A DNA stretch of 64,000 nt. Origin: Candidatus Binatia bacterium. Lineage in GTDB: Bacteria; Desulfobacterota; Binatia; Bin18. The translations under genes were made by a program, and so were the position numbers. Below are positions 23,900 to 26,020 of this stretch, one piece after another. Numbering within the stretch: position 1 is the first letter of the stretch; each line of letters begins with the position of its first letter. The notes beneath the pieces were generated by a model that was given only the letters and a program-made list of their open reading frames with translations, had not been told where the DNA came from and ran no database searches. The stretch is taken from contig CAXXHG010000018.1 in assembly GCA_963666315.2 (NCBI GenBank), positions 64,001 to 128,000 on the forward strand, given 5' to 3'.

Positions 23900-24181
23900 T
23901 TACTTTGAGACACTCAGACTAGACCTGCCCACCTGTACCGGTGCCGACACGCGCATTTCATTCTGCTCAACCGAGTGATGTATAAACTCCATGTTAAATC
24001 CGTCCGGATCGATATCAATATGCTTCCGAATGGCAGCCAGGATATCTCTACGGAGCGCCTCTCTCTTTTTGGGTGTTAAGCCCAGCCGGTCTTCCTGCAA
24101 GACAAGCAGCAGCCGGTTTTTAGCGTCAGTCTTGCTTCCAGTTCCGCCTAAAAATCGCTGAATGATTTGTTCCCATGTCAT
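23900..24181 (-). CDS. minE: Cell division topological specificity factor MinE
   Basis: SKTDAKNRLLLVLQEDR...LRRDILAAIRKHIDID; follows minD. Confidence 0.92.
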   Translation of the reverse strand: MTWEQIIQRFLGGTGSKTDAKNRLLLVLQEDRLGLTPKKREALRRDILAAIRKHIDIDPDGFNMEFIHHSVEQNEMRVSAPVQVGRSSLSVSK

Positions 24182-24184
24182 GAC

Positions 24185-24979
24185 TTAGCTCCCAAAGAAT
24201 ATTTTACCGAGCCGCTGTGCCAAACCGCCATGCCCGTTTAGCTTGGGAATTGGAATTTCTTCCCCTAGCATCCTGCGGACAATACGATCGTACGCCTTGC
24301 CGGATGGCGAGCCACCGTTGAGGACTACCGGGGAGCCCTTATTGCCGGCAATGATGACCGCTTCGTCTTCAGGAACGATGCCCAAGAGCTGGATCGCCAA
24401 GATGTCAAGGACATCCTGTTGGTCCAACATATCACCCCGTCTCACCATAGCCATGGACATCCGATTGATGATGAGCTGGGGATCGCCCAAGGACGACTGC
24501 AGCAATCCGATGACTCGATCCGCATCGCGAACCGGAGAGACATCGGGTGTGGTCACTATAATCGCCTCGTCTGCCGCAGCAACCGCGTTTCGAAAGCCTT
24601 GTTCGATTCCAGCCGGACAGTCGATCAAGACAAAATCAAATTCTTCTTTGAGCTGAGCGGACAGCTCCCGCATCTGATCAGCGCTTACGGCGTCCTTTTG
24701 GTCAACTTGCGAGGCCGGGATCAGAAATAGATTAGAAATCCGCTTGTCTTTGACGAGGGCCTGTCTGGGCTGGCAGCGGCCGCTCACAACATCCACAATA
24801 TTATAGACGACGCGGTTCTCTACCCCGAGGATGAGATCGAGATTGCGTAACCCGATGTCCCCGTCAATCATGACGACCTTCCGGTCATGGCTGGCAAGGC
24901 CAAGGCCGATATTCGCGGTCGCCGTCGTTTTTCCCACCCCGCCCTTACCCGAGGTGACGACAATTGCTCGTCCGCTCAT
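24185..24979 (-). CDS. minD: Septum site-determining ATPase MinD
   Basis: VTSGKGGVGKTT, DIGLRNLD, ENRVVY, DCPAGIEQGF, VRDADRVIG, C-terminal amphipathic LAQRLGKIFF. Confidence 0.97.
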   Translation of the reverse strand: MSGRAIVVTSGKGGVGKTTATANIGLGLASHDRKVVMIDGDIGLRNLDLILGVENRVVYNIVDVVSGRCQPRQALVKDKRISNLFLIPASQVDQKDAVSADQMRELSAQLKEEFDFVLIDCPAGIEQGFRNAVAAADEAIIVTTPDVSPVRDADRVIGLLQSSLGDPQLIINRMSMAMVRRGDMLDQQDVLDILAIQLLGIVPEDEAVIIAGNKGSPVVLNGGSPSGKAYDRIVRRMLGEEIPIPKLNGHGGLAQRLGKIFFGS

Positions 24980-24990
24980 GGCGCGCCCTC

Positions 24991-25689
24991 CTATAGTTTT
25001 CCTTTGTATGGTTCAATCACAATTTGCTCATCAAAAATTCGAGCGACTTCCGGATGTACCGTCCCTCGATGGTTTTGCCCATCCTCCGGTATCGCGATCA
25101 GGGGTCCAATCCGGAGCTGTAGTGGCATAAAATTGAGCGCAACAACCACCGCTTTCGTGTTATCGGGATAGCCGGCATGGACCACCCCGCGCAACGTTCC
25201 CATGACAACCACATCTCCTCCAGCAATAATTTCTGCTCCCTGGTTTACATCACCAACCAGGACGACATCTCCGTCAAAGACTTTTTTCTGCCCACCGCGC
25301 ATGCCGCGCCGTAGGTAGAGTGCGCCATTCCCCTGCTGAGCGGTTTCTTGGTCTTTCTTACGCTCACGGGTTGACAGCAAATTTTGTCGAACGGGCAAGC
25401 CTTCTTTGTACAAGAGGTCTCGGCTTGCCGACGAGCTCGCCACTGCATAACGGAGGAGGAGGCCTTCACGGTGCAGCGTGTCTTTGAGCTGCCACCATTC
25501 TTCCTTATGCAGCACCCGCCCTCCAAAATGGAGAACAATAGGGGAGTCGCGGAAGAAGCCGTTCGCCCGCGTCAGTTCTTCTTCGACGGCCGCAATCACG
25601 TCACAGAACGACGCTTGATCATCGAAGAGGAATGTTGGCCCTCCCTTGAGCCCTTTTATTGAAAATAGCGGCACGCCTTCCTGAGGCAC
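24991..25689 (-). CDS. minC: Septum site-determining protein MinC
   Basis: IKGLKGG N-terminus; beta-helix RGGQ...GDVNQGAEIIAGGDVVVMGTLRGVVHAG; P.QLRIG...PEVA. Confidence 0.93.
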   Translation of the reverse strand: MPQEGVPLFSIKGLKGGPTFLFDDQASFCDVIAAVEEELTRANGFFRDSPIVLHFGGRVLHKEEWWQLKDTLHREGLLLRYAVASSSASRDLLYKEGLPVRQNLLSTRERKKDQETAQQGNGALYLRRGMRGGQKKVFDGDVVLVGDVNQGAEIIAGGDVVVMGTLRGVVHAGYPDNTKAVVVALNFMPLQLRIGPLIAIPEDGQNHRGTVHPEVARIFDEQIVIEPYKGKL

Positions 25690-25733
25690 TCACCACCTCC
25701 ACCCACACACTGACTTTGCCCACTTCGGACGAC

Positions 25734-25781
25734 CCACCACACCTTGTAGCAAAAAAATCGTCAGACTACAATATCTAGTGG
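25734..25781. promoter_or_regulatory. Tandem NrdR-box-like operators
   Basis: CCACCACACCTTGTAG (25734-25749) and CTACAATATCTAGTGG (25766-25781) against consensus acaCwAtATaTwGtgt; 32-bp start-to-start spacing. Confidence 0.65.
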
Positions 25782-25798
25782 GTAAGATTTTTGGGCAA
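25770..25798 (-). promoter_or_regulatory. Putative sigma70 promoter of minCDE
   Basis: TTGCCC (25798-25793), 17-bp spacer, GATATT (25775-25770); the -10 lies inside the stronger NrdR-like box. Confidence 0.5.
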
Positions 25799-25900
25799 GT
25801 ATAGACTTTTCCCTATCCCCGCCCTAGTTGCGAGCTGTGTTCAGACAGGTATAACAACAGCCTGAAGGATTATTGGTACTACGAAGGAGGTCAACGTAAT

Positions 25901-26020
25901 ATGCATAGAGAGAGAGATCAAGAAATCCGCCGGCGTCGCAAACGCCGTAAAGAGGCACTCAAACGTCGCATCAAAGAACTCAAGACACAGGCAAAGGAAC
26001 GCAAAGTGGCAGTCTCGTAG
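25901..26020 (+). CDS. 39-aa highly basic small protein (resembles DUF6800-type proteins)
   Basis: Below the ORF-track cutoff. AAGGAGG RBS at 25884-25890; MHRERDQEIRRRRKRRKEALKRRIKELKTQAKERKVAVS*. Confidence 0.75.
   Translation: MHRERDQEIRRRRKRRKEALKRRIKELKTQAKERKVAVS

Follow-up and report, generated by a model that had tools for sequence, protein, structure and literature searches.

The genes of ribonucleotide reductase (RNR) are controlled by NrdR, a repressor that combines a zinc ribbon with an ATP cone. Excerpts of the published work, from which all cited statements on NrdR in this text are taken, report that NrdR binds DNA when it carries dATP in addition to ATP but not when it carries only ATP (10.1101/2024.05.27.596032), that binding needs two boxes with a linker of 15–16 bp (PMC13584703), and that a single box is insufficient (PMC12051234). 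The highly conserved positions of the box are C4, A6, A8, T9, T11, and G13, and C4 and G13 are said to be contacted by the NrdR residues Asp15 and Arg17; the box can do without the central AT given at least ~63% A/T between C4 and G13, the outer positions and positions 7 and 10 are unimportant for binding, and the sequence of the linker is not conserved (PMC13584703). Before topA, all genes described as NrdR-regulated were RNR genes (PMC4409342). Here, we describe a pair of NrdR-type boxes that lies upstream of the division-site genes minC, minD, and minE in a 64,000-nt window of a Binatia genome (the window being the whole stretch of DNA analyzed, G000:C18:64001-128000, where G000 is a 5.0-Mb assembly of 47 contigs that is 92% complete). 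The box pair is probably an NrdR operator on minCDE. As a candidate site it fits most of the published requirements for NrdR binding, resembles the operators of the class II reductase gene nrdJ in the same clade, and is conserved upstream of minC in Binatia. The conserved pair thereby hints at a link between DNA-precursor supply and cell division.

The two boxes occupy the region 45–92 nt upstream of the GTG start codon of minC (24991–25689, minus strand). The strong box, CTACAATATCTAGTGG, which comes first in the minC direction (box 1), lies at 25766–25781 and scores 16.6 bits with a matrix built from 13 unique, program-picked strong nrdJ boxes of the clade, and the weak box, CCACCACACCTTGTAG (box 2), lies at 25734–25749 and scores 7.3 bits with the same matrix. 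They are separated by a 16-bp linker (25750–25765), with box starts 32 bp apart, and the positions and spacing given in an earlier note on this DNA proved exact. The strong box also retains all six highly conserved NrdR positions, as had been claimed, and seven of its eight bases between C4 and G13 are A or T. The weak box holds five of the six (C4, A6, A8, T11, and G13), with a C at position 9, and its A/T content between C4 and G13 is 4/8 in the window and 5/8 in the commonest form among relatives. The window thus contains two partially palindromic 16-bp boxes, a linker that agrees with the published lengths (15–16 or 26–27 bp), C4 and G13 eight bases apart in both boxes, and A (or T) at position 6 together with T at position 11 in both. 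Compared with a high-affinity synthetic box, the strong box differs only at positions 1, 2, and 7, of which position 7 has been altered without loss of binding and positions 1 and 2 stand outside the conserved set (PMC13584703). Taken as a putative NrdR site, the strong box satisfies every published rule, and the weak box satisfies every one except that on A/T content. Readings of the conserved bases as a LexA-type site, a sigma-54-type site, or a DnaA box were considered by eye, with no search run, and were rejected on spacing or key bases.

Conservation was followed in 41 distinct minC upstream regions, namely the window and 40 Binatia loci whose MinC identity ranges from 97% down to 59%; the genomes compared are related, so that the counts are descriptive. 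Box 1 reaches at least 12 bits in 34 of the 41 regions and stands out in the alignment as the best-conserved intergenic block. C4 and G13 are present in both boxes at 31 loci, in box 1 only at four, in box 2 only at one, and in neither at five, and the linker measures 16 bp in 40/41. The presence of paired boxes upstream of minC in related genomes, which the earlier note had put forward as a check, was therefore borne out. Among other 300-nt windows of the same loci, 3 of 383 reach 12 bits, and these three probably include true minC boxes whose minC start fell outside the masked stretch; among Chloroflexota minC upstream regions, 2 of 39 reach 12.6 bits. Because the boxes are conserved at the same place next to minC in 34/41 regions, they are unlikely to be the relic of a lost nrd gene, an alternative that the earlier note had raised. 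The linker has diverged in its 5′ half (in the minC direction), as have the flanks of the pair, and relatives keep its 3′ half, a T-run and then TG. Box 2 retains its first five bases, T11, G13, and T14 across relatives and varies freely at positions 8–10. Box 1 is missing from seven loci (L090, L097, L101, L102, L104, L105, and L106), through a short deletion inside the box in L090 and with an insertion that ends at the box in L097 and L106, and at least three distinct parts of the locus set show box losses. Where box 1 is lost or weakened (L090, L097, L102, L105, and L106), C4 of box 2 has changed to T, which turns TACAG into TATAG and brings it nearer to a consensus −10 element. This change suggests a trade-off between promoter strength and binding of the putative repressor.

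The boxes coincide with what appears to be the minC promoter. A tentative −35-like hexamer, TTGTAG (25766–25771, minus strand), lies inside the strong box and is conserved in all aligned loci, even where the rest of box 1 is absent. Downstream, after a 17-bp spacer, a tentative extended −10 element (TG, one base, TACAAG; 25743–25751, minus strand) lies in and next to the weak box, and the pattern TG-n-TAYAG following the T-run is conserved in nearly all 41 loci. The loci that lack the boxes keep TTGTAG or TTGTGG, the T-run plus TG, and TACAG, which there reads TATAG or TATAC. A scan of 25600–26000 for consensus promoters and terminators returned no site; it missed the extended −10 because the hexamer there does not end in T. 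A search for sequencing runs listed none of RNA. Tentatively, then, the boxes would cover the −35-like hexamer and the extended −10-like element, at about −47 to −32 and −15 to +1. The earlier note had instead assigned minC a TTGCCC-N17-GATATT promoter. Those letters are present, but the consensus scan did not return them and the −35 is not conserved in relatives: TTGCCC has been replaced by unrelated bases in all loci but the window, except that the three nearest relatives read CTGCCC or CTGTCC. Given the conserved promoter-like elements, the weak box, which had been placed in the leader, more likely sits on the −10 and start site.

The same arrangement bears on which gene would be controlled, since minC shares its 211-nt intergenic region with a divergent small gene (25901–26020, plus strand) that encodes an Arg/Lys-rich peptide of 39 aa conserved in 40/40 Binatia loci upstream of minC. 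A tentative promoter for the small gene, TTGCGA-16 bp-TATAAC (25829–25856, plus strand), was read from the sequence, and its −10 part is conserved in the alignment; it is ~50 nt past the strong box and thus clear of both boxes. Several hundred inserted bases part minC from the small gene in G013 and G016; there the −35-like hexamer has remained next to minC, and the minC/small-gene region of these two genomes contains no box. Because the boxes sit on the minC-facing elements and the hexamer in G013 and G016 remained with minC, we take minCDE as the target. The small gene is a possible second target and is less well placed.

The closest counterparts of the minC boxes stand at the reductase genes of the same clade. 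In 30 relatives' nrdJ loci a strong box stands between the TTGACA and the −10-like element of the promoter, with a weaker box 31 bp upstream of the strong one that usually starts with CTAC, like the minC boxes. One of these nrdJ boxes (L058) is identical to the strong box of the window at 14 of 16 positions. In G000, the RNR large-subunit model PF02867 matches only contigs C24 and C6 and the model PF13597 has no match, in agreement with the earlier statement that the window holds no nrd gene. C24 carries a class II reductase gene of the nrdJ type, and a second, cut copy lies at the edge of C6. For this copy (C6:2-700; L011) nrdJ starts at the contig edge and the search reads through two TGA codons and one TAG codon. 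Its promoter region is closer to those of other species of the genus than to that of the C24 copy, and it could be a decayed paralogue or derive from a contig of a co-binned relative.

With the nrdJ-derived matrix, the two G000 nrdJ promoters score 27.0 and 24.6 bits, and the strong minC box ranks 12th among ~5 million positions. The 12 sites with at least 16.6 bits comprise the two nrdJ sites, five inside long open frames, which is about the chance prediction, and five intergenic sites, of which three lie upstream of guaB, smc, and minC and two have no recognizable downstream gene. The division into coding and intergenic sites follows inspected frame lists, as a rule accepting any frame of at least 150 aa called the smc, guaB, and one of the nrdJ sites coding. 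The partner of the strong minC box (7.3 bits, 32 bp away) is the best partner found among all 25 sites with at least 14 bits; from the ~815 G000 sites with at least 7 bits (first matrix version), we estimate that a strong site would have a partner this good, at any of the four offsets allowed, with a chance of ~6e-4. Under a rule that asks for a partner with C4 and G13, at least 4/8 A/T, and a distance of 31–32 bp, 6 of 139 sites with at least 10 bits pass. Four of these six are the two nrdJ sites, smc, and minC, all of them among the 12 top-scoring sites. A stricter rule (C4, G13, W6, W11, and at least 5/8 A/T) is passed only by both nrdJ sites and one site at the start of C10, and the minC and smc sites fail it in G000. 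The C10 site lies upstream of a gene that reads like an alpha/beta hydrolase, a label taken from reading its sequence only. In the reverse direction, a matrix made from the minC boxes of relatives, with the window left out, ranks the G000 minC box 1st and the smc box 3rd. From the reverse-matrix ranks, the minC and smc boxes are nearer to each other than to the nrdJ boxes. Judged in this way, the minC and smc sites clearly have a motif in common; that it is also the motif of nrdJ, as proposed, is argued from the critical positions and architecture that they share, not from the overall score.

The companion sites have conservation patterns of their own. The strong NrdR-type box at smc (G000:C8:32827-32842; L154:2001-2016), outside the window, lies 52–67 nt upstream of the gene. 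Among loci at genus and order level, 23 of 25 have it with at least 14 bits, and of five more distant loci none does; 15–16 bp further on is a second box that has C4 and G13. The guaB box (G000:C8:59804-59819; L152:2001-2016), also outside the window, lies 94–109 nt upstream of guaB, which encodes IMP dehydrogenase, and scores ~12 bits or more in 22 of 24 genus- and order-level loci; its second box is doubtful. Some other Binatia families have palindromic variants (C4, A6, A8, T9, T11, and G13) at the same distance from guaB, with low matrix scores. G013 and G016, which lost the minC boxes, retained the nrdJ box and a weaker smc box. Two further intergenic boxes, C44:8055 (L150) and C11:6926 (L151), score 19–20 bits and stand on promoter-like sequence. 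Neither has an Rfam match at E up to 0.01 or a recognizable downstream gene, and no Pfam family was found for the open frames next to L151. The C44 site adjoins a gene that, from reading its translation, looks like a toxin–antitoxin type.

A number of observations count against an NrdR operator at minC. Within G000 the strong box is not clearly above chance: three Markov-simulated genomes held 3, 3, and 6 sites with at least 16.6 bits, against 12 observed. With three to six equally good sites to be expected from chance, a single genome gives weak support. The test with a matrix from nrd promoters that the earlier note had called for thus gave a good score and rank, but one that chance would also yield a few times. 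By a rough estimate, the 6 of 139 partnered sites are about what chance would give. The matrix made from relatives' minC boxes puts guaB 21st, the C6 nrdJ site 22nd, and the C24 nrdJ site below 11 bits. The weak box, with 50% A/T, falls under the 63% lower limit reported in PMC13584703, and the box 2 of most relatives, with a G at position 6, receives about −8 to +4 bits from the nrdJ matrix; G6 in both boxes lowers affinity 4- to 10-fold (PMC13584703). Promoter function also appears to account for part of the conservation of both boxes, because promoter-like elements that persist where the boxes are lost take up the 3′ half of box 1 and much of box 2. The features that the predicted promoter leaves unexplained are the 5′ half of box 1, G13 and T14 of box 2, and the C4-to-T change in box 2. 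Finally, nrdR itself was not found in G000 with TIGR00244 in the 92% complete assembly, so that the presence of nrdR in the genome, on which the earlier note had made its proposal depend, was not confirmed from the assembly as it stands.

The surroundings of nrdR in relatives suggest why. The gene (TIGR00244) is present in 39 of the 41 genomes searched, counting G000, and in 23 of 24 genomes of the same genus, all above the cut-off; in G000 an ATP-cone model gave only a 14.9-bit match. In G024, whose NrdR carries Asp15 and Arg17, nrdR lies within the block plsX-fabD-fabG-glyA-nrdR-ribD-ribBA-ribH-nusB. Blastn with 10.4 kb around nrdR from two relatives, and tblastn with the G024 open frames, found no orthologue of any gene of this block in G000. 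As this housekeeping block has no orthologue there, G000 is without at least ~9 kb of core genes. Several genes of the block are normally indispensable, and because of this the absence of nrdR looks like an assembly gap, the block being unassembled rather than lost.

Three other explanations of the boxes were weighed. The dyad could be the operator of a regulator other than NrdR, either the 39-aa basic protein or a factor common to minC and smc whose site resembles an NrdR box, which we consider unlikely. Such a regulator would suit the ranks from the minC-derived matrix (smc 3rd, nrdJ promoters 22nd or not found), the outer bases CYAC ... GTRG that the minC and smc boxes have in common and that are missing from the strong nrdJ boxes, and the small basic gene adjoining minC in 40/40 loci. 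However, it would need to share every NrdR feature, from C4 and G13 eight apart and the A/T-rich center to a second box after 15–16 bp. Moreover, outer bases are unimportant for NrdR binding (PMC13584703), the weak nrdJ box likewise starts with CTAC, and G013 and G016 retain the small gene yet lost the boxes. Still assuming an operator, and NrdR as its ligand, the main target might be the divergent small gene at 25901, or both genes might be controlled. The position of a palindromic site in a common 211-nt intergenic region and the constant presence of the small gene speak for this possibility, but the boxes lie ~50 nt upstream of the promoter-like hexamers of the small gene and directly on the minC-facing ones, and the insertion in G013 and G016 left the box 1 hexamer with minC and no box near the small gene. 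Control mainly or also of the small gene is, in our judgment, quite improbable.

It is also conceivable that there is no operator and that the parts of the minC promoter (the −35, T-run, extended −10, and start) resemble NrdR boxes by coincidence, promoter and boxes alike being rich in A/T and having TTGT and ACAA arms. Even box-less loci do keep the −35-like hexamer, the T-run with its TG, and TAYAG, the conserved 3′ half of the linker is unexpected for NrdR, whose linkers vary (PMC13584703), and the single-genome statistics are weak. Against this stand the 5′ half of box 1, which precedes the −35-like hexamer, belongs to the best-conserved intergenic columns, and completes the dyad, and box 2, where G13 and T14 are fixed while the interior varies. 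When box 1 is lost, C4 of box 2 turns to a better −10 base, as if it were otherwise constrained, and boxes of this kind are also found at smc and guaB. A plain promoter as the sole cause of the pattern therefore seems to us an unlikely account, and an NrdR operator on minCDE is the best-supported reading, which we develop below.

In this proposal NrdR would be seated on the minCDE promoter. Loaded with dATP plus ATP, it would bind as a tetramer to both boxes, which face the same side of the helix at a distance of three turns, and would cover the −35-like hexamer and the extended −10/start region; minCDE transcription would be kept low. When dATP fell, NrdR would leave the DNA, and minCDE would be derepressed together with nrdJ, probably with smc and guaB alongside, given their similar conserved boxes. 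Low dNTP levels would derepress because ATP alone does not bring NrdR to the DNA and dATP is needed as well. Derepression at low dNTPs, as the earlier note had it, agrees with the published direction of NrdR action (10.1101/2024.05.27.596032). That the resulting rise in MinCD would suffice to delay FtsZ-ring formation is something we infer purely from this scheme. In a broader and distinctly doubtful extension, the NrdR regulon of Binatia might have widened from RNR to a chromosome-cycle set of nrdJ, guaB, smc, and minCDE. The dATP/ATP balance would then jointly set precursor supply, chromosome condensation and segregation, and the level of MinCD, and would act as a division checkpoint without DNA damage.

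Searches of the literature on NrdR with minC, the regulon or NrdR box, smc, or guaB gave, among the matches listed, no proposal of NrdR control of these genes, and a prediction in Rodionov and Gelfand 2005 or RegPrecise is possible; the earlier note's remark that it knew of no such description for minCDE accords with what we found in print. An NrdR regulon is usually recognized by an RNR operon as the target, and here the genes downstream are minC, minD, and minE. In the literature examined, NrdR is treated as an RNR-specific repressor, with topA of Pseudomonas aeruginosa as the one tested exception (PMC4409342). If the proposal is true, at least one phylum tunes genes for chromosome segregation and division-site selection through a dNTP sensor, which would speak to the long-standing question of how division is matched to replication capacity in bacteria independently of the SOS response. 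As NrdR proteins recognize heterologous sites (PMC13584703), the coupling could be tested with a short DNA fragment and purified protein. The organisms are uncultured, so proof in vivo would need a surrogate host.

The genes downstream of the boxes form an ordinary Min locus. Adjacent to one another on one strand, minC (TIGR01222, 114 bits against a cut-off of 95.25), minD (24185–24979, minus strand; TIGR01968, 366 bits against a cut-off of 213), and minE (23900–24181, minus strand; TIGR01215, 42.9 bits, just below the cut-off of 49.3, with an E value of 3.7e-11), all from NCBIfam models, make up a MinCDE system in a single operon arrangement. Downstream of the min genes, on the plus strand, lies a gene that we take to be hslU from reading its translation, no family search having been made. 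With the window MinC as the query, minC was found in 25 of 41 genomes including G000, which correspond to the genus and one order-level relative, and in none of the 15 genomes searched in other families (G026–G040). For the 39-aa protein of the divergent small gene, no family was found in Pfam, and the Atlas gave only a faint lead, DUF6800 on 12% of one cluster.

Division inhibitors of the SulA, YneA, and ChiZ types are controlled by LexA. In its working the proposed circuit would be alike, as a repressor that senses DNA metabolism would control an inhibitor of FtsZ assembly. It would differ in its signal, the dATP/ATP balance rather than DNA damage, and in its target, an ordinary Min system rather than a dedicated inhibitor, and no LexA-type box is recognized at the locus. 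Closer in form are the NrdR operators of Escherichia coli nrdAB, nrdHIEF, and nrdDG and of Streptomyces coelicolor nrdAB and nrdRJ (PMC13584703, PMC12051234), with which the minC site shares two partially palindromic 16-bp boxes, a 15–16 bp linker, C4 and G13 in both boxes, an A/T-rich center (here that of the strong box), and, as predicted here, overlap with promoter elements. E. coli nrdAB likewise pairs a strong box with a more degenerate one, and its second box also has central G's (PMC13584703). In contrast to these RNR operators, the genes downstream are minCDE and the site is a predicted one, and the 50% A/T of the weak box in the window is lower than that of any natural box listed in the excerpts of PMC13584703. 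The topA site of P. aeruginosa resembles the putative minC operator in that NrdR acts there on a gene other than those of RNR, in this case one for DNA transactions (PMC4409342). However, topA has a single box and is activated, whereas the window holds a full pair that would be placed for repression, with a division-site system as its target.

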